Virus record (IMG/VR): IMGVR_UViG_3300032373_000038
Coordinates: 1-41,954 of that record
DNA from: a virus
Taxonomy: Duplodnaviria > Caudoviricetes
Length of the DNA: 41,954 nucleotides
Strand: one strand, 5' to 3'
Part shown: positions 2,554 to 24,364 of the stretch, in pieces
Position numbering within the stretch: the first letter of the stretch is position 1
Layout: each line of letters begins with the position of its first letter
Program-made: the position numbers and the translations under genes
The notes under the pieces: model-generated
Told to the model about the DNA's origin: nothing
Databases searched by the model: none
What the model saw: only the letters and a program-made list of their open reading frames with translations

Positions 2554-3411
2554 CTAAGCGGCCCCTAGCTCCTGCTTCTTGGTGTTAAGCTGTTTAATTA
2601 ATTCGCCGCGGTGGATTTCGTTTTTGACAGACCCAATTAACGATTCAGCAAGCTCAACGTCATCAGCTGTTTTGGCATTTTTGATATCGCCAGCTACTGA
2701 TGCATAGGTGGCTGGCAGTGTTACTATTTCTTGATCTGGGCTTGCCTCATCATCTGGAGTGACCGCCTTTTCTTCTTGCTTTAGGTCTTGTGTGGTAACG
2801 CTATAGGCTCCGGTCTCATCCATCTTTGCATCAAATGTTTCATTAATTTGATCGGCTGTTTGTAGACCCATGGATATCTCAGGAGCAACGGTATCCACCA
2901 ACCATGCAGCAGAGCGATACATGAACATTTTTTCGGGCATTGTTTTCCACTTAGAGCCATTTTTACTGTCCCACTTTTCAGCACGAACTAGATCCCATGT
3001 AATCCAAGGGGATTCGACGCGCTCATTAGTTGCCTTTTCCATTGCCCACGCACGACAACCATAATCACGATCACCTGGGTTGCCTTTCCACTCATACCGA
3101 ACAGAAGAGAAGCGACCACATTGGTTAAATGATGCGATTAAAAACTTGGCAGACCATCCAGGTGTTCCATGAACGACATAAAGGTTTTGCATAACCATTA
3201 GTGGATCGGCACCAACACGGTTAGCCATGTTTAGCGCAATCACGCAGTTCGATAAATTATCTCTGTACTGCTGAGGAACTAGCGTTGAGGCGGCTAGCAT
3301 ATTTGCTTGGCGCTGCATTAGCTCAAAGCTAGCGGAAGTGCTGAAGCCAGCGGTAACTACTTCCTGGCTTCCTTGTTGTTGCATTTGGGATAAAGTGACT
3401 TGCTGATCCAT
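2554..3411 (-). CDS. Single-strand annealing recombinase (RecT-like)
   Basis: NCVIALNMANRVGADPLMVMQNLYVVHGTPGWS and WKTMPEKMFMYRSA motifs; paired with an exonuclease. Confidence 0.75.
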   Translation of the reverse strand: MDQQVTLSQMQQQGSQEVVTAGFSTSASFELMQRQANMLAASTLVPQQYRDNLSNCVIALNMANRVGADPLMVMQNLYVVHGTPGWSAKFLIASFNQCGRFSSVRYEWKGNPGDRDYGCRAWAMEKATNERVESPWITWDLVRAEKWDSKNGSKWKTMPEKMFMYRSAAWLVDTVAPEISMGLQTADQINETFDAKMDETGAYSVTTQDLKQEEKAVTPDDEASPDQEIVTLPATYASVAGDIKNAKTADDVELAESLIGSVKNEIHRGELIKQLNTKKQELGAA

Positions 3412-3422
3412 GGGTTAAGTCC

Positions 3423-4229
3423 TTATTTTCGAAAGTTGCAGGTGGTGTACCGCGGGCAATAGCGTTCGTGGCACATCATTGATTTTGGATTGCCGTAGAA
3501 GCTGCCTGAGTGAATTAGCTTTGATGCTTGAGAGAGAATTCCTGTATTGCTAGCATCACCAAGTAATACGGCTCTTGAGCCCGTGATCTCCCCAGAGCCA
3601 ATACGCTGAGAGGCGGGTGTTTTTGCTGTGTTAAGCCCGACGATTTCACCAGGTGCGGTAATGGGTAAGCCGCCGCCATATTCAGCAAGCAATTCATAAA
3701 CACCGATTTGGTAGGCATGGCCCTTGGTATTGACGTGGCCGTCTTTGGCAACAGCTTGCTTGCCTGTTTTAATATCAACAATGCCGTAGCCTCCATTGGT
3801 CTTGCGTATCCGGTCAGTTGTGCCGGTGAGCGCTAAACCAACATCAGTAATTTCGAGTCGATCACATTGCACTTCCACGGCCACATAGTTTTGAGTTGGT
3901 GCCACTTGCTCGCAGTATTTGCGGTGAAGAGATAGGGCTATTTTTTCAACGTCAGCAGGCTTGTCATCATCCCAAGAAACTTCTTCATCTGGGTTGGATA
4001 TGGTGTCTACTGCAGCACCTGCAGCTTCTTGGATAGTGATGCCTGAACCATCCAAGACCGCTTGGTCATATGCAGCCGTTGAGGCGTGCACCGCTCGACC
4101 AAGTTGAGCCTTACCGTTTGATGGTGTGTGCATCTTTAGAATGTGCTTTGATTCCCATCTAGCGGGGCAGTCGAATAATTCACCTAAGGAGCTTGCTCGA
4201 ATGGTGGTTAGCTTAATTGTTGTTTGCAT
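3423..4229 (-). CDS. PD-(D/E)XK exonuclease (RecB/Cas4-like, probable Fe-S)
   Basis: IRASSL...DCPARW, GTTD, IVDIKTG, QIGVY, C-terminal C-x4-C-x5-C. Confidence 0.85.
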   Translation of the reverse strand: MQTTIKLTTIRASSLGELFDCPARWESKHILKMHTPSNGKAQLGRAVHASTAAYDQAVLDGSGITIQEAAGAAVDTISNPDEEVSWDDDKPADVEKIALSLHRKYCEQVAPTQNYVAVEVQCDRLEITDVGLALTGTTDRIRKTNGGYGIVDIKTGKQAVAKDGHVNTKGHAYQIGVYELLAEYGGGLPITAPGEIVGLNTAKTPASQRIGSGEITGSRAVLLGDASNTGILSQASKLIHSGSFYGNPKSMMCHERYCPRYTTCNFRK

Positions 4230-4240
4230 GGGTTATTCCT

Positions 4241-5344
4241 CTAAGAGGCTTCTTCATCAACAACAAGATCCAGTACCTGGCTTCTCATTGTGCGTAGACG
4301 GTTATTAAGGCTTACAGTTAGCGCCATAAGCTCTTTGTCATTTACCTCAGGAATTGAATCGATTAACTTTTGAAGATCATTGCAAGCCCACACGCGAAGC
4401 TTTTCCTTTTCTGGCCAAGCAGCTTTCAGACGCTCTTGTTCGGCCTGTTTTGCTGCAAACTCTTCAGCTTCCCGCTTTTGGTGTTCGGCTAACTCACGAC
4501 CTGCTTTTTCCTTGGCTGCTTGCTCCATTTGGATACGATGGGCTTCTTCGTCTTTTTCTTTCTGGATGCGGGCGGCTTCAGCCTCAACTTCACGGCGCTG
4601 GCGGTCAATTTCTTCCTGCTCGGCTTTGGCCTTGGCATCCTGTTCTTCTTGTTGTTTACGAAGTTCGGCTTGTTGTTCTGCATGGATGCGGTCACGCTCT
4701 GCCTGTTCAGCTCTTAGCTTGGCTAATTCTGCTTGCTCAGCTTCGTATTGGCGGCGGGCTTCGAATGTGGTGGTGATGGCGTGAATAGTGGCAGCCTTGG
4801 CACGCTCGGCTTCGGGCTGGAATTCAACAAAGGAGCCATCAATAACTATTTCGGTAACCGCCTCCAGTCGTCTTGCCATGTCGTCGGCAGTCTCTCCGGA
4901 GAAGAAAGTAGCGGCATCACGCATATCAGAGATTCGCGCTTGAATAGAGCTAATACGCTCATGTTCAATACGAGCCTCTTCGGCTTTACGAATGGCCTCG
5001 GCTTCTTCCCATTCAGTAAGAGGAAGACGTACTTCGTCACGAATCGCATCAAGCGAGTCGCGCATCTTTTTGCGAGCGCCATCAACCACCTTAATTTCCG
5101 CTTTCTTTCCCGCAACCAAGGCCTTGCCCGCGTCATCAAGCGCAGTCTTGGAACGCGCTACCTTAAAGGCGCGAGCCTTTACTTCAGCACGACCCTTAGC
5201 TGTTGAAATATCCGGCGCAATACCAAGCACCTCATCCTTAACGGCTTGGATAATCGGGTCGATCCCCTCGCCTGTAAATACCTGGACGGCGTTAATGTCA
5301 TCGACACAGGCAAGTGTTTTCTCGTTACTCATAATGTTCTCCAA
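4241..5344 (-). CDS. Long coiled-coil phage protein (type often mislabelled TolA-like)
   Basis: PDISTAKGRAEVKARAFKVARSKTALDDAGK...LRDEVRxPLTEWE-type motif, then E/A/K/R-rich coil. Confidence 0.75.
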   Translation of the reverse strand: MENIMSNEKTLACVDDINAVQVFTGEGIDPIIQAVKDEVLGIAPDISTAKGRAEVKARAFKVARSKTALDDAGKALVAGKKAEIKVVDGARKKMRDSLDAIRDEVRLPLTEWEEAEAIRKAEEARIEHERISSIQARISDMRDAATFFSGETADDMARRLEAVTEIVIDGSFVEFQPEAERAKAATIHAITTTFEARRQYEAEQAELAKLRAEQAERDRIHAEQQAELRKQQEEQDAKAKAEQEEIDRQRREVEAEAARIQKEKDEEAHRIQMEQAAKEKAGRELAEHQKREAEEFAAKQAEQERLKAAWPEKEKLRVWACNDLQKLIDSIPEVNDKELMALTVSLNNRLRTMRSQVLDLVVDEEAS

Positions 5345-5347
5345 TGA

Positions 5348-5641
5348 TTAATTACTGGTTTCAAGGCCTTCTTGCTTCACTAATAGCGAAGGCACAGCAG
5401 GGCAGTTCTCGTAGACATCGCACCCACTGCATTGCCCACGACTACAGAGATCATCAACACGAACAGCGGCGTAAAAGGTGCGCTGAAGATCAGCAATAAG
5501 CGTCTCTGTTCGTTGGGCGTGGTAATGGGCCTCAGGCAATGCGTTACGCCCCAGTGCTGCGGCTGCGGCCTTTGATTCTCTGGCCGCCTCACTCATTACC
5601 ATATCGATGCGAGCCGATTGATTAATGCCAATATTTGTCAT
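5348..5641 (-). CDS. Hypothetical protein with C-terminal Cys cluster
   Basis: In the PL operon with GGAGG RBS; CSRGQCSGCDVYENC. Confidence 0.6.
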   Translation of the reverse strand: MTNIGINQSARIDMVMSEAARESKAAAAALGRNALPEAHYHAQRTETLIADLQRTFYAAVRVDDLCSRGQCSGCDVYENCPAVPSLLVKQEGLETSN

Positions 5642-8493: not shown

Positions 8494-9093
8494 TTAGTTG
8501 CTAGGGTCTATTAATGAGTCCCTAATGCAGTCGGGAAGATTCGATCTAGCATCGACCTGATTCATTATTTCTGTCGCTAAGTCATGTAATTTGACGCGAC
8601 GCCGATTTGATTCTGTAGCTAGGAATTTTTTGGCGTCATTAACGGACAGGCCAAGGCGACAGCAAATGATTGCAATAGCTCCCGATAGGGCGCGTGAGTT
8701 CTCAACAGCCGACTCAAGCGCTGTGACGCGCCGAACATAGCGCAGACCCACTTTCACAGAGGCTAGCACTTGCTGTAGCTGAATCGGTTTATCAATATAA
8801 CCAACTGAGCCAAGGCGATCCCACTCAGCAATAATACCGTCGTCCCTGGCTGCCGTTGTGCCAATGAATGCTGTACCAAGATTATTTAACTCAACAGCAA
8901 GCTCAAGGCCTGACATTCCAGGCATCATGCAATCTATGATAGCTACATCAACATGGTTTGTTGCGATAATAGCTAGCGCTTCTGCACCGCTGCTAGCTTC
9001 AATAACAATGCATCCATTTTTTTCTAATAAAAGCCGAAGCGGCGCTCGCCCCATTTCTTCATCATCAACAATCAATATTACAGAGTTACGCAT
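8494..9093 (-). CDS. Response regulator, REC plus ANTAR domain
   Basis: REC: IVDDEE, phospho-acceptor IIDCMMPGMSG, TTA, DKP. C-terminus SRALSGAIAIICCRLGLSVNDAKKFLATESNRRRVKLHDLATEI has the three-helix ANTAR pattern. Confidence 0.82.
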   Translation of the reverse strand: MRNSVILIVDDEEMGRAPLRLLLEKNGCIVIEASSGAEALAIIATNHVDVAIIDCMMPGMSGLELAVELNNLGTAFIGTTAARDDGIIAEWDRLGSVGYIDKPIQLQQVLASVKVGLRYVRRVTALESAVENSRALSGAIAIICCRLGLSVNDAKKFLATESNRRRVKLHDLATEIMNQVDARSNLPDCIRDSLIDPSN

Positions 9094-9181: not shown

Positions 9182-9706
9182 CTATCCGGCAAAGCGGGCA
9201 AGGCGAGCAATCCACTCGGGGTCTTGGGCCTTCCCTTGGCGTTTGGCGTCATCAAATAATAACGCTATCAGCTCAGATTCCTTATCGTCGGGCAGCTTAA
9301 TGCCGCGCTCTTTGAGCACTTCTTTTGTGACCTTCATTACAGCTAGCAGCAGGTCATTCTCGCTTGCGTAGCCGTAGGCTGTGGTGCTTTCCTGGGCCAA
9401 GGGTGGTGTTGCAGACTGACTTGATGGCTGTTCTGTCTGGGTTAAATAGGCGACATCAGGCCTAATGTCCGAAGGAGCGACGCCGAAGAATTTCGCAAAC
9501 TTCAGCGTTGCCTGAACACCCAAAGGAGTGAGGCAATTCAGGTAATGACTGAATGCACCTTGGGACATGTCCAGGGACTCAGCCGCCTTCTCTTGGCTAA
9601 GCTTTCTCATGTTTTTTGATTTTCTTTTTGCCTGCAGGCGGCTCCACAGCTCACGCAACACTGACGCAGCTAATTCGTCTTCTTTCGTAATTTCTTTCTT
9701 TGCCAT
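9182..9706 (-). CDS. cI: CI-like repressor (XRE HTH, no S24 peptidase domain); start revised to ATG 9706
   Basis: LSQEKAAESLDMSQGAFSHYLN HTH; divergent from cro; C-terminus is a short helical domain. Confidence 0.85.
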   Translation of the reverse strand: MAKKEITKEDELAASVLRELWSRLQAKRKSKNMRKLSQEKAAESLDMSQGAFSHYLNCLTPLGVQATLKFAKFFGVAPSDIRPDVAYLTQTEQPSSQSATPPLAQESTTAYGYASENDLLLAVMKVTKEVLKERGIKLPDDKESELIALLFDDAKRQGKAQDPEWIARLARFAG

Positions 9707-9782
9707 ATTAGCGATCCTAATATATCTGTGCTTAATTACAATTAGCCTAGGTATTGACAAAAACATTAGCCGCACTAATACT
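9707..9782. promoter_or_regulatory. OR region: three operators, PR and PRM
   Basis: ATTAG-N5-CTAAT at 9707-9721 and 9765-9779, degenerate copy at 9741-9755; PR TTGACA (9754-9759) with -10 TAATACT (9776-9782); PRM on minus TTGTAA-16 bp-TAGGAT ending 7 nt before the cI ATG. Confidence 0.85.
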
Positions 9783-14984: not shown

Positions 14985-15013
14985 TTTCGATACGACAATG
15001 TGTCGTATATAAT
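14985..15013 (+). promoter_or_regulatory. Sigma70-type promoter with palindromic operator
   Basis: TTTCGA-17 bp-TATAAT; ATACGACA-ATG-TGTCGTAT palindrome (14990-15008) fills the spacer. Confidence 0.75.
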
Positions 15014-15054
15014 GTATTCACAGTCAGAGAGAAAACAACGCAAGGAGAGATCAA

Positions 15055-15387
15055 ATGTACGAGACACGTGACGAGCTTGTAGAGCAACTATATAAGGATC
15101 TAAAAGAGGGAAAGTATACCGACTCATACTATGGAAAATTATTGACTAGTCCGTCTTTTTTTGAAGAAGAAGCAAGAGTGAAATGTGAAAAAGCAAAGAA
15201 GGAAGTAGAGCAGTTCTTAGCTGACACTAAGCCCGGCGACAAAATGTACGGTGAAGAATTTTCAGAAATATACACAGAAAAAAGCTATAAGCAACAAATA
15301 GAAAATATAGAAAGACGTGCAAATATTGATAATCAAAGGGAATGGCTAAAAACAACGGCAGAGAACATAATTTTAGGACTTGAGTAA
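15055..15387 (+). CDS. Hypothetical protein (A-rich accessory module)
   Basis: AAGGAG RBS; 110 aa; no recognised family. Confidence 0.75.
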   Translation: MYETRDELVEQLYKDLKEGKYTDSYYGKLLTSPSFFEEEARVKCEKAKKEVEQFLADTKPGDKMYGEEFSEIYTEKSYKQQIENIERRANIDNQREWLKTTAENIILGLE

Positions 15388-15439
15388 CAACCTTAAACCA
15401 ACGCGGCCGGCCAATTTGGCCGGCTTCTGAGGCAATAAA

Positions 15440-16009
15440 ATGAAATTCAAAATAGTATTTTTCCCATATTCGGAAAAAGCAGGCCTCGATTTATTGGACG
15501 AATACGAGCGATTAAATTTTCCAGAGCATCAGCGTAAAAATAAATTCGAAGCAGGTGGCGCCGATATTGATGTCCCGATTGAAGTAGCGAGACTATTAAG
15601 CAATATCTTTCATGACTCAACAACTGCACACATACATATCGATAGCTCTCTAACCTCGGCTGACAGTTGGGAAGAAGATCATTACGACGTAATGCGACTC
15701 AAGAAAATAGACCTTTCTGAACTGACATGCAAAATGCTAACAGCAAATAGGAAGCAACTCGAACACAAGAAAGCAGGATTCGATACGTTTTTCGAGCATG
15801 AAAATGCTAACGACAATATCGAGCTTGACGCAACTGAAAAACAAACAATTAAAACAACATTAAAAAAACGTGGCATCACTGAAAAAGATATCGATTTTGC
15901 AATTCAAAAAACAACAAATCAGAAGACTCTAAGAAGAAAAATAGATGAAATAAAAACTATTAAAACGCTAGAACTCGCAATTGAAACAGCGGGAGAACGA
16001 AAAAAATGA
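15440..16009 (+). CDS. Hypothetical protein (A-rich accessory module)
   Basis: GAGG RBS after a GCCGGCCA/TGGCCGGC hairpin; ATGA overlap with the next gene. Confidence 0.75.
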   Translation: MKFKIVFFPYSEKAGLDLLDEYERLNFPEHQRKNKFEAGGADIDVPIEVARLLSNIFHDSTTAHIHIDSSLTSADSWEEDHYDVMRLKKIDLSELTCKMLTANRKQLEHKKAGFDTFFEHENANDNIELDATEKQTIKTTLKKRGITEKDIDFAIQKTTNQKTLRRKIDEIKTIKTLELAIETAGERKK

Positions 16010-16254
16010 ACAAAGCAACCGAAGTGCGTAAGGCATTGGGCCTCACACAAAAGGAGGCTGGTGAATTGTTCGCTGGTCAAGCTGGGCAAAATGCTAGCGA
16101 CACATGGGGCCGATGGGAACGGACGGAAAAATGGCCCAAGCCCGCAGACAAGCTCATGACATTAATTCTCGCGTTAAAAGTGGCCGAGAGTTTAAAAACA
16201 CCAGGCGTTAGCAAGGGATTGGAATTTGCACTCAATGAGCTTAGAGAAAAATAA
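16006..16254 (+). CDS. XRE-family HTH regulator
   Basis: VRKALGLTQKEAGELF...TWGRWE. Confidence 0.8.
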   Translation: MNKATEVRKALGLTQKEAGELFAGQAGQNASDTWGRWERTEKWPKPADKLMTLILALKVAESLKTPGVSKGLEFALNELREK

Positions 16255-16261
16255 GGAAAGT

Positions 16262-16316
16262 TGAGCTATTAGGAAATCCCGAATAACTGAGTATTCCGGA
16301 ATTTCCGGATAACTGA
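16262..16316. repeat. Two tandem imperfect palindromes (about 26-bp period)
   Basis: TGAGCTATTAGGAAATCCCGAATAACTGA followed by TGAGTATTCCGGAATTTCCGGATAACTGA. Confidence 0.65.
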
Positions 16317-16323
16317 AGTAGAG

Positions 16324-16408
16324 GCATAACGTTAGGCATAAATTGCGGCCCACTGAAATAGAAAAAGACGCGGCGCGTTCGCCGTCAATTTAATGTCCTT
16401 TGTTATGT
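16324..16408 (-). mobile_element. attC site 1 (85 bp)
   Basis: Minus strand ACATAAC AAAGG ACATTAAATTGACGGC...GCCGCAATTTATGC CTAAC GTTATGC. Confidence 0.85.
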
Positions 16409-16428
16409 GGGCTACGGAGACCAGAACC

Positions 16429-16689
16429 ATGACTAATAAAGTAACAATACAGCAAGTTAATAAATTCAAAGTGACCATAGGTGATAAGACCTATGAAGAT
16501 TTTGAGAAGGTTAGCGAATGGAATGGGATGCTCGAATTTAAAGGGCCAAGCGGAACAATCATTGTTCATAAGGAAGAAGATATGATGGCGACATTTTCAT
16601 CTATATTTGGGAATGTGAAACAGCCAGACGCAACTGATTTTCATATAGCCAAGATATCCCCAGGACTGGTTGATACCACTGCCACATAA
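16429..16689 (+). CDS. Cassette ORF, hypothetical (start ATG 16429)
   Basis: CTACGGAG RBS; stop TAA lies in the core site. Confidence 0.75.
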   Translation: MTNKVTIQQVNKFKVTIGDKTYEDFEKVSEWNGMLEFKGPSGTIIVHKEEDMMATFSSIFGNVKQPDATDFHIAKISPGLVDTTAT

Positions 16690-16813
16690 CGCAAAGCATC
16701 ACGGGCTTGCGGAAATGAGGCCACAAAACTTGGAGCGATTATTGATATGAGCGGGACCACAGAGCTAGAAGCGAACACCGAGGTAGCAAGTCCAGTGGAT
16801 GCGATTGTTAGGC
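16684..16813 (-). mobile_element. attC site 2 (130 bp)
   Basis: Minus strand GCCTAAC AATCG CATCCACTGGACTTGC...GCAAGCCCGTGATGC TTTGC GTTATGT. Confidence 0.88.
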
Positions 16814-17127
16814 GTATTTTACGACTGACCCTGACGAAACAATGGTTTGATTTGATCGTGAAAGGCGAAAAGAAATTTGAGTATCGTGAGTACAAAAAAC
16901 ACTGGATGTCTCGCTTGCTTTGCAGTAGCGGCATTAGAAACTATGACGAAATTCATTTCACCAACGGCTACGGAAAAGATAAGCCCTTTGCTCGCGTAGA
17001 ATTTGATGGCGCTGCAATTATTAAAGGTGAGCATTGCTCTCCAGATAATGATGAGGCACTGGACTCTGATAAGAAATATTTTGTTATTGGCCTTGGCGAA
17101 GTTTTAGAGGTTGGTAACTACGCCTAA
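16747..17127 (+). CDS. Cassette ORF, ASCH/PUA-like domain protein
   Basis: LTLTKQWFDLIVKGEKKFEYR (GxKxxExR) ... IHFTNGY. Confidence 0.82.
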   Translation: MSGTTELEANTEVASPVDAIVRRILRLTLTKQWFDLIVKGEKKFEYREYKKHWMSRLLCSSGIRNYDEIHFTNGYGKDKPFARVEFDGAAIIKGEHCSPDNDEALDSDKKYFVIGLGEVLEVGNYA

Positions 17128-17251
17128 CGCCAAGCATCACAGGCTTGCGGAAGCGAGACCACAAAAATTGGAGTAAAAATTAACATGAGCGAAGCCACAG
17201 AACCTAAACCAAACGCCGAGGCAGCAAGTCCGGTGAATGCAATTGTTAGGC
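17122..17251 (-). mobile_element. attC site 3 (130 bp, about 78% identical to site 2 by hand count)
   Basis: Minus strand GCCTAAC AATTG CATTCACCGGACTTGC...GCAAGCCTGTGATGC TTGGC GTTAGGC. Confidence 0.88.
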
Positions 17252-17604
17252 GCGACGATACCAAGTGCGGTGATAAATGCACTGACCCTAAAGGCTGTTA
17301 TGCCCACGGCTGCCTGGTTGAGGTTGGCCTTGATGAGCGGATGATTGCCGCTGGCATGATCCCTATTAGTGAGATGCTAGAGCGCAACCCTCTTGGTAAA
17401 TTTTCGGCGTGTGCTGAAGTTACAGATTTAGAGAATTTCGAGAAATGGCTAAAGGATTGCTATCGCGAATTTTTACAAATGCAAGTACGCATGACTTTAG
17501 CTAAGAAAGAAGACGATGAGCTTTTCGAATGGACGCTGAGTCATGCCGCTTGCCTTGGCTCTGTTTTGGCAAACTTTAGGCAGGCAACAGGACGCAGCGC
17601 CTAA
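17185..17604 (+). CDS. Cassette ORF, hypothetical with Cys-rich segment
   Basis: GGAG RBS and ATG inside attC 3; stop in the core site. Confidence 0.75.
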   Translation: MSEATEPKPNAEAASPVNAIVRRDDTKCGDKCTDPKGCYAHGCLVEVGLDERMIAAGMIPISEMLERNPLGKFSACAEVTDLENFEKWLKDCYREFLQMQVRMTLAKKEDDELFEWTLSHAACLGSVLANFRQATGRSA

Positions 17605-17666
17605 CGGAGAAGCTGAGTTGCGTTTGTAGCGCAGCGGAAAACGTCAAATCGAGCGCATTGTTATGC
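17599..17666 (-). mobile_element. attC site 4 (68 bp)
   Basis: Minus strand GCATAAC AATGC GCTCGATTTGACGTTT...CGCTGCGCT...AAACGCAACTCAGC TTCTCC GTTAGGC, a typical short attC. Confidence 0.9.
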
Positions 17667-17687
17667 GTGACTACGGAGTGAACATCA

Positions 17688-17972
17688 ATGCTTAAAATGA
17701 AAGATAAAAGGGACGCTGGTGCGATATTAGAAAGAGGTGGTATCTCGCAGCGGATTATAAGTATTGCCCAAGAAATTGCAGAAGGCTCTTATAAGGATGC
17801 AATTAAAAATGCTGGGCGAATTGCTGCACTAGTTGATGCCGCTACTTACGATGGTTATTGGGACGCTAAAGCCAAGGAAGGGAAGCTTCAGGAAGAATTT
17901 ATTCTTGAGGATTTGAATAAAGGCGTGGTTACGCGAGAAAGAATGATAGCTCAAGTAGACCCTTACGCATAA
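17688..17972 (+). CDS. Cassette ORF, hypothetical
   Basis: CTACGGAG RBS; stop TAA in the terminal core site GCATAAC (17967-17973). Confidence 0.75.
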   Translation: MLKMKDKRDAGAILERGGISQRIISIAQEIAEGSYKDAIKNAGRIAALVDAATYDGYWDAKAKEGKLQEEFILEDLNKGVVTRERMIAQVDPYA

Positions 17973-18142
17973 CTAGCGATACAAACCAACGTGGTGTAAT
18001 CCCCATCCGGGAATTACACCAGCTTTTAAGCAAATGACTCCATATGTTACTGATTATTGCTTTTGAAGCGGTGTATATCCAAATGTTGGCTATCGAAAAA
18101 TATCTTTTTCTGTGGAAAGAACCGCTGCATTCCCTTGATTTT

Positions 18143-18184
18143 TTGACAACTGTTTAAACAGTAACTAGAATTACTACCTAGAAT
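18143..18184 (+). promoter_or_regulatory. Late promoter PR' with candidate Q-binding element and sigma pause element
   Basis: TTGACA-17 bp-TAGAAT; perfect palindrome ACTGTTTAAACAGT in the spacer; second TAGAAT at 18179-18184 just after the predicted start site. Confidence 0.82.
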
Positions 18185-18198
18185 TGCGTGAATTGTCC

Positions 18199-18229
18199 AA
18201 AAAGCCTGGCCACTGTGCCGGGCTTTTTC
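18199..18229 (+). terminator. tR'-like terminator
   Basis: AAAAAGCCTGGC-CACTGT-GCCGGGCTTTTT directly after PR'. Confidence 0.8.
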
Positions 18230-18274
18230 GTTTGGACAATTTGGACAACATAAAAAACACATAGACAAGGCCTC

Positions 18275-19033
18275 GTGAGCACTCTGCTTAGCGGGGCCTT
18301 TGTCGTTTCTGAGGGCATGGTTTTGAAAGTCACAGCATCGATAAAAGCCACAATCAAAGAAGCGTGTAACTGGGCGCTGCTTGCATACCAGAGCCGCGGC
18401 TTTCTTGAGTCTCGCTACGGTGACCAAATCACTGTGATCGACATTGATAACGATAAGAGGGGCGAGTTTGTCTACGTTCTAGACCGGGGCGATTCTGCTG
18501 TAGTCGCTATCGCCGGCTCTAACGATATTCTTGATTGGATTCGAAACCTCATCTTTCGTAAGACCAAGTGCAAGCGCTATCACGCCGGTTTTTCTGCTGA
18601 ACTGGACAGGATTGCCGATCAAATTCTTGAGGCTGTCAGAAAGACGGGAGCGAAGTCAGTACTGGTTACGGGGCATAGTCGTGGCGGTGGCGTGGCGATT
18701 CAGTTGGTTCATAAATACCGTCATTACTTTCCCAATGATCTTGAGTTAGTTGTATTTGCTGCACCTCGTGCACTGACAAAGAAAGCTGGGTGGAATATTT
18801 CTAATTGTCGGTTCCTGAATGTGATCGTGGGCAATGACCTGGTCGCCTCTCTTCCTCTTGTTGCCTGGGGATTCAAAACCTATGGGCATGTGATCGAGTT
18901 AGGTGAAAAGCTTTCTTTGTGGTGTAGGGCGCTACGCTATACCCATGCGGTCAAGAACAAGGTTAAGCCAACGCTCAAGGGCATTAAGGATCATCTTCCC
19001 GCTGCTTACTCAAAAGCTGTGGGGAAGCTTTGA
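18275..19033 (+). CDS. Class 3 lipase (alpha/beta hydrolase); true start may be ATG 18317
   Basis: VAIAGSNDILDW lid, HAGF, nucleophile GHSRGG, FAAPR, NDLVASLP (Asp), DHLPAAY (His). Confidence 0.9.
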   Translation: MSTLLSGAFVVSEGMVLKVTASIKATIKEACNWALLAYQSRGFLESRYGDQITVIDIDNDKRGEFVYVLDRGDSAVVAIAGSNDILDWIRNLIFRKTKCKRYHAGFSAELDRIADQILEAVRKTGAKSVLVTGHSRGGGVAIQLVHKYRHYFPNDLELVVFAAPRALTKKAGWNISNCRFLNVIVGNDLVASLPLVAWGFKTYGHVIELGEKLSLWCRALRYTHAVKNKVKPTLKGIKDHLPAAYSKAVGKL

Positions 19034-19287
19034 TGAGTGAAATTGATCCAGCTACTGCAACCGCTGTGGGCGGCACCGGAATTGCTAGCTGGTGGATTAT
19101 TCGGTGGTTCTTTAGTCGCTCGATTAAGCGTGTTGATGATCTGGAGGAGCGCCTCGAGAAGTTGGAGCAAAACGCAGCGACACATGCTGACATTAAGCAG
19201 CTTCGAGAGGCAATAGAAAATGGTAATCGGTCTATTCATGAGCGGATCGATGGGCTGTATAAGCTTTGGGCTGAAAAACCAAAGTAG
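19030..19287 (+). CDS. Holin-like small protein (N-terminal hydrophobic segment plus coiled coil)
   Basis: AVGGTGIASWWIIRWFF then RVDDLEERLEKLE...IHERIDGL; lysis-slot position. Confidence 0.5.
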   Translation: MMSEIDPATATAVGGTGIASWWIIRWFFSRSIKRVDDLEERLEKLEQNAATHADIKQLREAIENGNRSIHERIDGLYKLWAEKPK

Positions 19288-19297
19288 CTGGTGATTA

Positions 19298-19723
19298 GTG
19301 CTGAACAATGCCAAGCGAGATGCCAAGCGAGACGATAAGTTTTTTGAGGCGCTTACTGAGGGTTATGGACCTGCTAATGCTGCAAAGATGGCTGGGTACT
19401 CTCGCTCTAGTGCGTACAACTATCGCAAGGAAGATAAGGCGTTTAGTGAGCGCTGGGATGATTCTCTTGCCGAGTATAAAGAAACGCTTGAGGCTGAAGC
19501 CGATAGACGGGCCCATGACGGTGTTACTGAGGGCATTTATTACCAGGGAAAAGAGGTTGGCAGTGTCCAAAAGTACTCTGATTCGCTTTTGATGTTTCGC
19601 CTTAAGAAAATTGACCCAAGTTACCGAGAGAACTTTAAACCTGATCCTCGTGATAGCGAGGATGACGATCCCGTGTCTGTTGAATTTGTAGTGATAGATG
19701 GTCGCAAAGATAGCGAGAGCTGA
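19298..19723 (+). CDS. terS: Terminase small subunit
   Basis: N-terminal HTH (AAKMAGYSRSSAYNYR), LEAEADRRA...YSDSLLMFRLK; upstream of terL. Confidence 0.85.
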   Translation: MLNNAKRDAKRDDKFFEALTEGYGPANAAKMAGYSRSSAYNYRKEDKAFSERWDDSLAEYKETLEAEADRRAHDGVTEGIYYQGKEVGSVQKYSDSLLMFRLKKIDPSYRENFKPDPRDSEDDDPVSVEFVVIDGRKDSES

Positions 19724-22426: not shown

Positions 22427-22682
22427 TCAAAAAGTAGCTGAGCTTTTCCCTAAATCAAACAAGAGCCTTGTGGAGCATTTAGAGAAGTTGGTAGAGATGG
22501 CTAAAGAAGGCGATCTTACCGGGATGGTTGCTCTCGGGGTGACGAATGATGGTTGTATCGTCGATGGTTTTACCGGGATAGAAGATAATGTGTTTAACGC
22601 TATTGCAGGTCTTCGAATCCTTGAACATCGAATCATTACGGGTAGTGTAGATATGCCGGAAGAGCGCAACATCTACGAATAA
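22419..22682 (+). CDS. Hypothetical protein
   Basis: Overlaps the portal stop and the MuF start; LEKLVEMAKEGDLTG. Confidence 0.7.
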   Translation: MSDQKVAELFPKSNKSLVEHLEKLVEMAKEGDLTGMVALGVTNDGCIVDGFTGIEDNVFNAIAGLRILEHRIITGSVDMPEERNIYE

Positions 22683-24364
22683 TGGCCGTCCCCGATCTGC
22701 TCGTCCAATCCACTGTACGCCATCAAGTACACCTGGAAGGACTCAAGGCGGGCGAAGTAAATCAGTTCACTGCTTTTCTAAAAAAGATCGACAGAGATCT
22801 TCGAGAGAAGCTAACGCGAAGCGAGCTAACCGAATACTCTCGTGACCGCCTTGAGAAACTCCTTAAGTCAGTCGACAAGATGCTGGCAGAGACTTACGGC
22901 GATTACTACGATGAGCTAGCGGGCCATTTAACTGACACCGCAGAGTATGAGGCCGAATTCGAAGCAAAAAGCCTTAACAACGTTTTGGATTCTTCAAGTT
23001 TTGAGGCTGTTGTTCCAGCGCCTGCACAAGTTCATGCGGCGATATTTTCAGCGCCTTTGTCTGTACGTGGTGCGGATAATGGCAAGCTTTTAGAACCGTT
23101 CATTAAGGACTGGTCTCACAATGAGCGTAAGCGCATTGTTGGTGCGATCCGCCAAGGCGTGTTTGAAGGACAAACGAATCACCAGATAATCCAGAATATT
23201 CGAGGCACCAAAGCCGCTAAGTTCAATGATGGAATTCTGGCAATCAGTGCGCGAAATGCTGAGAAGGTCGTTAGGACAGCGGTTCAGCATGTATCGACAG
23301 CGGCGCGCTTTTCTACTTTCGAAGAAAACAACGACATTGTAAAAGGCTACCGAATCGTAGCCACACTGGACGGAAAGACCTCGGTTATTTGTCGCTCGCT
23401 TGATGGCGAGGTGTATGAACTAGGCAAGGGCCCGCGTCCACCGTTCCATGTTCTGTGCAGGACAACGATTATTGCTAAGCTGGATGATCGCTTTGCATTT
23501 CTCAAAGAAGGCGCTACCAGAGCCTCTATGGATGGGCCGGTTGACGCAAAAGAAACTTATTATTCTTGGCTGAAGAAGCAGGAAGTAGCGTTTCAAGATG
23601 ATGTATTGGGCCCCAACAGGGGCAGCCTGCTTAGGAGTGGTGACTTAAGTGCAGAAAAGTTTGCCAAGCTAAATATTGGAAAAAACTTTAAGCCGCTAAC
23701 TTTAGCCGAGATGCGACACAAAGAACCATTGGCTTTTAAAAAGTCAGAGGCTGTTAAGCCGCTTACTAAGCAGGCTGAGCATGCCAAACTGGCAGAATCG
23801 CGCCAACGTCAAGATTTAACTCGAAACTGGATGAGCGATAAGGAATACAAAACCGAGGCTGGACGCATGGTGAACCCTCGCATCAAAAAACAGGCAGAGG
23901 AGTATGGTTTAACTCAGCCTGAACAAGTAGCGATCGGACATTACACTGGCACGGGATATTTTGATCTTAATGGTGATCTGTTTAATGCAAAACAACCAGC
24001 CGATGCTAGACTCAATGATGCGGCCAATGTTTTGCGAGATGGGTTAGCCAAACTACCAGGCTTTGAAGGTCAGACAATAAGGAGAACTACGCTACCTGCT
24101 TCGATATTAGAGAAGCATCAAATAGGTAGCGTGGTTGAATACCCAGCGTTTACAAGCTCAACGTTTGGCCCTAGTGATGTCTTCGATGACAATCCACACC
24201 GGTTTGTTATTCAGGGAACAGCAGGCAAAAAGATTGACTGGATTAGCCACTTTGGCTCAGAGCGTGAAGTGCTGCATACTAGTCCTACCAAGTTCCTGGT
24301 TAAGGGGCGCATTGAAAAAGATGGGATCGTAGAGATTACGTTAAAAGAGCTGCCAAATGACTAG
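22682..24364 (+). CDS. MuF (SPP1 gp7-like) minor head protein with C-terminal ADP-ribosyltransferase domain
   Basis: MuF: ATLDGKTSVICRSLDG...PPFHVLCRTT. ART: YTGTGYFDLN, KLP, TIRR, FTSST, SEREVL (R-S-ExE class). Confidence 0.88.
   Translation: MAVPDLLVQSTVRHQVHLEGLKAGEVNQFTAFLKKIDRDLREKLTRSELTEYSRDRLEKLLKSVDKMLAETYGDYYDELAGHLTDTAEYEAEFEAKSLNNVLDSSSFEAVVPAPAQVHAAIFSAPLSVRGADNGKLLEPFIKDWSHNERKRIVGAIRQGVFEGQTNHQIIQNIRGTKAAKFNDGILAISARNAEKVVRTAVQHVSTAARFSTFEENNDIVKGYRIVATLDGKTSVICRSLDGEVYELGKGPRPPFHVLCRTTIIAKLDDRFAFLKEGATRASMDGPVDAKETYYSWLKKQEVAFQDDVLGPNRGSLLRSGDLSAEKFAKLNIGKNFKPLTLAEMRHKEPLAFKKSEAVKPLTKQAEHAKLAESRQRQDLTRNWMSDKEYKTEAGRMVNPRIKKQAEEYGLTQPEQVAIGHYTGTGYFDLNGDLFNAKQPADARLNDAANVLRDGLAKLPGFEGQTIRRTTLPASILEKHQIGSVVEYPAFTSSTFGPSDVFDDNPHRFVIQGTAGKKIDWISHFGSEREVLHTSPTKFLVKGRIEKDGIVEITLKELPND

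Follow-up and report, generated by a model that had tools for sequence, protein, structure and literature searches.

Two or more nearby attC sites with no integron integrase close by are known as a CALIN. In T4-type phages, promoter-stem-loop "mobile regulatory cassettes" flank variable genes, bring promoters with them and presumably work through homologous recombination. According to the main text of Qi et al. (2023, PMC9892861), a survey of 10,705 phage genomes yielded 17 attC clusters, and of six phage attCs that were assayed, five recombined with attI1 via IntI1. An attC site, in the description given by Nivina et al. (2016, PMC5027507), has RYYYAAC and GTTRRRY boxes (R boxes), an unpaired spacer of 5-6 bases, a variable terminal structure and a length of 57-141 bp, and carries two or three extrahelical bases, the first usually a G and the last a conserved T, separated by a 6-bp stem. 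Short open reading frames (ORFs) of attI1 and attC sites (ORF-11; Jacquier et al. 2009, as cited in a review, PMC8876359) possess a Shine-Dalgarno motif and a start codon, aid translation in classical integrons and are described there in terms of termination-reinitiation on the classical strand. Here we analyze an attC array in the virus record IMGVR_UViG_3300032373_000038 from IMG/VR (41,954 bp, completeness estimate 63%; hereafter the window), in which two genes, one of them encoding an ASCH-domain protein, appear to start inside a recombination site.

We consider it probable that the region 16324-17973 consists of four integron-type cassettes whose genes occupy the attC bottom strand, so that every gene has its own attC in front of it, with the ASCH gene and the next gene likely starting at an ATG in the attC loop. 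The four sites, named S1 to S4, lie within 1.35 kb of a record that has no match to the integron integrase model TIGR02249, which corresponds to a CALIN. All the genes are on the + strand, and in every site the classical top strand is the - strand. S1 (16324..16408, 85 nt) displays the + strand boxes GCATAAC (5′) and GTTATGT (3′), and is followed by the cassette 1 gene (16429..16689, function not assigned), for which the likely start is ATG 16429, with GGAG 9 nt ahead; its frame is also open from ATG 16393, within S1, and its TAA stop (16687-16689) falls within the 5′ box of S2. S2 (16684..16813, 130 nt; boxes ACATAAC and GTTAGGC) is the ASCH cassette's own site, and the 126-aa ASCH gene product (16747..17127) has its residues 1-23 encoded within it, so that the ASCH cassette would span 16690-17127 (438 bp). 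S3 (17122..17251, 130 nt; GCCTAAC and GTTAGGC) likewise provides residues 1-23 of the 139-aa cassette 3 protein (17185..17604). S4 (17599..17666, 68 nt; GCCTAAC and GTTATGC) lies upstream of the start of the cassette 4 gene (17688..17972, 94 aa, function not assigned), which has GGAG 9 nt ahead of its ATG. The array ends with a lone half-site, GCATAAC (17967..17973, + strand), which holds the cassette 4 TAA stop and has no 3′ box after it. All four genes thus stop on the TAA of the next box.

The four sites fit the published description of attC, with R boxes, spacers of 4-6 nt per arm and the lengths given above. Their + strand 3′ arm reads T, 6 nt, and then G (S2, S4) or A (S1, S3): in S1 an unpaired T is followed by a 6-bp stem and the A, and in S4 the G is followed by a 3-bp stem, a 5-nt spacer and GTTATGC. 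The bulge positions are slightly shifted in the free fold of S2, and the GTTATGY boxes are off consensus at position 5, as in genuine Vibrio anguillarum sites. In S2 and S3, an outer inverted repeat of 7 nt encloses a spacer, an inner stem with imperfect pairing and a loop of ~70 nt. The first-pass annotation, made from the letters of this DNA alone, had described these two as colinear 130-bp relatives with about 78% identity; in agreement with this, they form a 128-nt direct repeat (16687-16814 and 17125-17252) with 80% identity, and are 79.4% identical when the 130-nt sites are aligned globally. We also built a covariance model from 10 attC top strands of the integron beside intIA in V. anguillarum phage MK672802. 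On the R46 class 1 integron (NC_003292), the top four matches of this model were the four attCs of that integron, at 10-11.6 bits. Its best match in the window was S1 (13.7 bits, E 0.35), on the - strand and at the exact coordinates; S3 (9.5 bits, E 4.5) and S4 (8.3 bits, E 9.4) were matched weakly, within the noise range, again on the - strand and with exactly the ends that we had defined by eye. The attC membership of S1-S4 is therefore well supported by anatomy, and weakly supported by the covariance model.

Probable translation starts of the ASCH and cassette 3 genes

The loops of S2 and S3 carry the translation signals that had been noted from the sequence: TTGGAG at 16730-16735 (GGAG 16732-16735) with ATG 16747 in S2, and TTGGAG at 17168-17173 (GGAG 17170-17173) with ATG 17185 in S3, the ATG lying in each case 11 nt past the GGAG and in frame with the downstream gene (ORFs 16747-17127 and 17185-17604). 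The 3′ arm and 3′ box of S2 translate to ASPVDAIVRR, and the 3′ arm of S3 to ASPVNAIVRR. The two proteins do share this start and are otherwise unrelated, as their homologue sets differ and there is no relationship past residue 23. A protein search with residues 1-40 of the 139-aa protein found only itself, but was insensitive, since it also missed P0002, a protein that bears the motif.

In the ASCH protein, the Pfam ASCH model PF04266 matches residues 27-52 only, with an E value of 0.0046 and 18.1 bits against a curated cut-off of 21.2. The AlphaFold model has a mean predicted local distance difference test (pLDDT) score of 88.7, with residues 1-20 at ~50 and the first strand formed by residues 24-28, and the top Foldseek matches are ASCH proteins (3iuw, 3s9x, 5y6c and 9kyf), although these matches are weak (E 1.6e-3 or worse, TM score 0.39-0.58). 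The results agree with the proposal that the fold begins right after the leader, at residue 24. No other in-frame ATG precedes the fold, as had been stated; an in-frame GTG, which had gone unmentioned, is present at 16795, and likewise at 17233 in S3, both inside the sites.

The homologues that we aligned begin with MRIL or similar where the window reads RRIL, the two arginines being encoded by AGG CGT within the GTTAGGCGT box, with the AGG standing at the ATG position of 104-aa homologues; 35 of the 53 ASCH homologues are 110 aa or shorter, without the leader. We compared the window with four other arrays, L003, L005 (a phage contig), L084 (a contig of a metagenome-assembled genome, MAG) and L086 (a metagenome contig). 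At the start region, a free-standing ASCH gene in L005 has GGAG followed by ATG AGA, L003 has GTT ATG CGT, with the box ATG coinciding with the native ASCH start, and both the window and L086 have GTT AGG CGT. The next in-frame starts downstream, TTG 16852 and GTG 16858, would cost the fold its strand 1. When the ASCH bodies of the window and L086 are compared, omega (the ratio of non-synonymous to synonymous rates) is 0.096 at a synonymous divergence (dS) of 0.94, and such strong purifying selection indicates that the ASCH protein is made in both lineages. Because the native ATG is an AGG and yet the gene is under purifying selection, the ASCH start must lie inside the attC.

Within the site, either the loop ATG or the arm GTG could initiate translation. 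The four known members of the S2 family (S2, S3 and one site each in L086 and L084) all keep an ATG, a Shine-Dalgarno-like motif 6-11 nt ahead of it and an open frame, and in all four only the gene's frame is free of stops from the ATG to the 3′ box, the other frames having 1-3 stops each. Since these features are maintained in a loop that is otherwise only about 50-70% identical, they favor the loop ATG. Initiation at the GTG, which would leave a 6-residue leader, has GAGGT or GAGG 10-11 nt upstream in S2 and S3 to commend it; however, in L086 and L084 the GTG of the family member is not preceded by a motif of this kind, and the GTG lies in the paired arm where the ATG lies in the loop, so that we regard this start as unlikely. 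S2 and S3 thus likely supply the ribosome-binding site, the start codon and the first 23 residues of their genes.

The case for a start in S3 is softer for the cassette 3 gene than for the ASCH gene, as the internal ATG 17341 could yield a slightly truncated protein. The conserved domain of this protein begins at about residue 47, and residues 24-46 are Cys-rich and absent from the homologues, five of which (93-129 aa) align from about residue 47 on. Viral relatives were found at 10 loci in GC-richer phages, in some of which the domain continues an upstream frame; by eye, the flanks of 7 of the 10 loci held no TAAC/GTTA box pair, a result that is uninformative on attC. Within these 23 Cys-rich residues, which separate the S3 leader from the conserved domain, an out-of-frame box-like heptamer, GTTATGC, occurs at 17296-17302, where the covariance model gave no match; it may be a relic of an older site, in which case S3 would have been grafted ahead of an earlier 5′ region.

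We then asked how common such starts are among the 25 sites of the five arrays, in which the frames for L003 2662 and 2970 were assigned by eye. The downstream start codon falls within the site in 12 of the 25, nine times in the loop or arm and three times as the ATG of a GTTATG box, and lies 15-45 nt past the site in the other 13. Two of the three GTTATG-box starts have GGAG in the arm nine bases ahead. The upstream ORF stops on the box TAA in 19 of the 25 sites. Two L003 sites (3364-3436 and 3679-3750) have the common 3′ end GGAGTGAATTGTTATG, in which therefore the arm supplies a Shine-Dalgarno motif and the box the next gene's ATG, with no leader peptide.

Polarity of the sites and unit of inheritance

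Two features allow the strand of an attC to be assigned, namely the arm carrying the unpaired bases and the strand matched by the covariance model. The controls, namely aadA1 and orfD of R46 together with seven Vibrio sites of clear structure, carry their unpaired bases on the 5′ arm when read on the gene-sense strand. In S1-S4, read in the same way, it is the 3′ arm, opposite TAAC, that carries them, and the clear sites of L003, L005, L084 and L086 show this 3′-arm placement as well. A template scan retrieved 13 sites of the 3′-arm type versus three of the 5′-arm type, compared with 2.6 of each per shuffle; the first template scanner missed the Vibrio reference sites, which have another bulge spacing, and was not used as a detector. 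The covariance model matches the R46 attCs on the gene-sense strand, whereas in the phage arrays it matches 21 of the 25 curated sites, in every case on the strand antisense to the genes alongside. Four L005 sites have genes running the opposite way, and there the matches switch strand accordingly. Some sites (L003 2369, 3364 and 3679, and L086 3740) free-fold into multiloops that hide the arm pattern, and the orientation there rests on the model matches. L005 also carries arrays on both strands (299-872 and 5038-5479 versus 3384-3798) on either side of an SSB gene, the sites being antisense to the local genes in each.

A classical cassette has its gene on the attC top strand and the attC at the gene's 3′ end, and the window array shows neither. 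Based on the arm with the unpaired bases and on the strand of the model matches, we assign the + strand of the window as the attC bottom strand, with the genes antisense to the classical cassette direction.

The relatives provide a further line of evidence, on which gene each site belongs to. In L086, an ASCH gene (P0002) with 81% amino-acid identity to that of the window is preceded by a member of the S2 family, while the upstream gene, the downstream site and the downstream gene are all unrelated to those of the window. The two align well over a stretch bounded on one side by the TAAC of the 5′ box and on the other by that of the ASCH stop, and homology is lost on both flanks. Since the ASCH gene keeps its upstream site next to different neighbors, each attC goes with the gene that follows it, a polarity opposite to that of bacterial integrons. 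Downstream of ASCH, the window, L086 and L003 each have a different site. In addition, a complete site stands first in the arrays of the window, L003 and L086, and those of the window, L003, L086 and L005 (+ strand) finish on a lone RYYYAAC half-site, placed on or directly past the last stop. The full-site start, the half-site end and the homology limits fit predicted C-attC-gene-TAA units that would be cut, on the gene-sense strand, at AA|C; in the account of Nivina et al. (PMC5027507), this AA|C is where the attC bottom strand is cleaved.

These results bear on the earlier proposal in two ways. The idea that the site supplies the ribosome-binding site and start codon holds for ASCH, given the AGG at the native ATG and the omega of 0.096, except that the start is the gene's own and not a neighbor's. 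The assumption behind it, of classical attCs trailing the upstream gene, with a neighbor's site starting a captured gene, is contradicted by the position of the unpaired bases, the strand of the model matches and the limits of homology to L086.

The L084 member of the site family carries the same peptide motif ahead of a third unrelated protein. Exact patterns of S2/S3 were also searched across contig collections: neither the 5′-arm pattern nor the two-arm pattern was found in viral contigs, exact matching being strict and rarity not implied, and the two-arm pattern occurred in one MAG contig among genome contigs and, among metagenome contigs, in one other contig besides the window's own. L084 (CAZNGK010000065.1), binned as an uncultured Thermoplasmatales archaeon, has small genes of bacterial-phage type, a RusA-like gene and three sites of attC type; it is probably a mis-binned phage fragment. 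Short contigs of run X1 that align at window positions 16323-16388 and 16685-16735 present S1-family and S2-family sites with other DNA upstream of the 5′ box; in the S1-like case, the DNA beyond the 3′ box is similar.

Alternative explanations and a possible mechanism

Several observations weigh against four reversed integron-type cassettes with starts in the loops. The 9.5 bits of S3 sit within the noise range of the covariance model for the window (8.5-12.4 bits), and three S2-family sites (S2, L086 2489 and L084 3989) were not matched by it at E ≤ 10. Whether folded as DNA or as RNA, the sites do not exceed shuffled sequences in stability (RNA z -0.5 to -1.3). The 25 sites in five arrays were curated by ourselves from inspection by eye, script and model matches, with no independent attC caller. 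TIGR02249 had 0 matches across the 41,954-bp record, which is not decisive as the record is ~63% complete, and the contigs of two microbial-mat DNA runs, one of which may be where the window comes from, revealed no excision, alternative junction or circle; in the second run contigs break near the sites, which may merely reflect assembly at repeats. S2 is as similar to S3 (79.4%) as to its L086 copy (80.9%), so that site similarity alone is no proof of co-inheritance with ASCH, and in L003 the sites flanking the ASCH gene, on either side, come from other families. As to translation, the GGAG-to-ATG spacing of 11 nt is long, and the in-frame arm GTG has a GAGG of its own 10-11 nt upstream.

The sites could be attC-like intergenic repeats of phages, shuffled by homologous recombination in the absence of an integron integrase, and the missing integrase, the missing junctions and the unexceptional fold stability would all suit this explanation. 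It has to contend, however, with sites that present all the structural features of attC, with a model of genuine attCs that finds them at their exact ends and scores them at least as high as class 1 attCs, and with the recombination of phage attCs with IntI1 reported in the main text of Qi et al. (2023, PMC9892861). We hold it to be rather improbable.

An array of classical polarity, in which each attC belongs to the upstream gene and a startless downstream gene borrows its neighbor's ribosome-binding site and ATG, is quite improbable. Stops within RYYYAAC boxes are typical of classical cassettes too, one site family stands ahead of three unrelated gene bodies, and S2 is no nearer to its L086 copy than to S3, all of which such an array would accommodate. 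It would not accommodate + strand unpaired bases opposite the AAC arm, nor model matches that are antisense to the genes in 21 of 21 cases when the R46 controls are sense, nor an ASCH gene whose downstream site varies between the window, L086 and L003 while its upstream site is common to the window and L086, nor arrays that open with a full site and close with a lone half-site.

The leader itself was compared in two parts. Codons 2-13 (window versus L086) have an omega of 0.93, with 3 synonymous and 9 non-synonymous changes, small counts, whereas codons 14-23 of the two ASCH cassettes differ by 1 change in 30 nt, against a proportion of synonymous differences (pS) of 0.535 in the gene body. 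Because the arm shows a single change although the synonymous sites of the body are half-saturated, the arm appears to be conserved as DNA, and ASPV[DN]AIVRR to be its translation; the shared peptide is thus probably not a functional motif. That the leader is a functional signal (for example for capsid packaging or secretion) and the hairpin incidental is very improbable, since, for all that ASPV[DN]AIV is common to unrelated proteins, the arm is as conserved at synonymous as at non-synonymous sites, the variable half evolves neutrally, residues 1-20 have a pLDDT of ~50, and most ASCH homologues are without a leader of such length.

Returning to reversed cassettes with starts in the loops, a mechanism can be proposed. 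An integron integrase of the host would move the units by cutting AA|C of the 5′ box, each mobile unit, of 438 bp in the case of ASCH, consisting of C, attC, gene and TAA. Expression of the array would likely come from the early rightward transcript of the phage, with ribosomes likely attaching at the GGAG, which lies in the open loop, and unwinding the arm during elongation. The 23-aa leader would then probably be a disordered scar, its last ten residues being fixed by the shape of the DNA arm. A further step, which we put forward tentatively and think less likely to be right than wrong, is that phages keep their own class of cassettes with reversed polarity, in which the attC, with its ribosome-binding site, start codon and leader, acts as a 5′ expression adaptor. 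The ASCH box would have been fused precisely onto a native Met-Arg start that later decayed to Arg-Arg, and the birth of a cassette would be an in-frame graft onto an attC adaptor already in place. If this tentative adaptor model is right, any frame joined at the GTT-ATG of the inner box would become a self-sufficient, mobile and translatable unit ending on the box's own TAA.

Phage setting and comparison with known systems

The window contains the gene set of a temperate tailed phage: genes for a CII-like regulator, a DnaB helicase and RusA are followed by a run of small genes, beyond which lie those for the large terminase subunit, the portal and the tail. Its only tyrosine recombinase is a phage-type integrase (219-1247). 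The cassette array sits in an accessory stretch, with the replication/RusA block on one side and the terminase on the other, and blastn of 15000-19500 against 50,697 phage records gave no match. Directly past the array lies a 13-bp perfect hairpin (17992..18021), called on the - strand by a terminator scan and followed on the + strand by GCTTTT after the stem, which is likely a terminator. A promoter-like site (TTGACA, 17 nt, TAGAAT; 11 of 12 positions) follows at 18143-18171. On the other side of the array, the spacer ahead of S1 (16255-16323) displays a CCGGAATTTCCGG palindrome between two ATAACTGA repeats, an element that may be an operator or the remnant of an insertion site. Elsewhere in the window, the product of 8494-9093 joins a response-regulator receiver and an ANTAR RNA-binding antiterminator domain in one protein, which is unusual beside a repressor-like helix-turn-helix gene (9182-9775), and 22682-24364 encodes a 560-aa protein with a Mu F-like head-morphogenesis domain (PF01129, E 1.8e-5) and a C-terminal ADP-ribosyltransferase domain (PF03496, E 1.1e-4), which looks like a virion-associated enzyme fusion.

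How a gene acquires its attC is an old open question, on which classical cassettes reveal little since the site trails the gene. The ASCH genes offer three states that can be compared, free with its own ATG (L005), with a box ATG that is its own start together with an upstream loop ATG (L003), and with the loop ATG only (window and L086). If the polarity found here is general, phage arrays would not simply be stolen pieces of bacterial integrons, cassette finders that assume the sense orientation would mis-assign gene-site pairs, gene callers would keep giving spurious or missing N termini, and every array transcript would carry a bottom-strand hairpin. In the literature that we searched, with subscription journals outside its scope, no description was found of reversed cassettes or of phage genes starting inside their own attC.

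Among known systems, the T4-type regulatory cassettes resemble the present sites as repeated regulatory hairpins ahead of small accessory genes that are tied to gene shuffling, but are without attC anatomy. The phage CALINs described by Qi et al. (PMC9892861) are closer: in the main text of that study they are, as here, rows of small genes of unknown function with attC-type sites between them and no adjacent integrase. That text is silent on polarity and on translation signals; in our array the genes are antisense and two of the four sites hold a start. The ORF-11 type (PMC8876359), as described in the review, shares with S2 and S3 a recombination site that carries a Shine-Dalgarno motif and a start codon, and translation through the hairpin that affects, or in S2 and S3 would affect, downstream expression. 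It consists of short leader ORFs, whereas here the gene itself starts in the site and is read through in frame. Classical cassettes (R46, NC_003292; Vibrio, MK672802) have in common with the array the R boxes, the spacer, the extrahelical G and T 6 bp apart, the variable loop, site lengths of 68-130 nt and the stop in RYYYAAC. In those cassettes, however, the gene is on the top strand and the attC comes after it, whereas in the window the gene is on the bottom strand and the attC lies ahead, overlapping the 5′ end of the gene.

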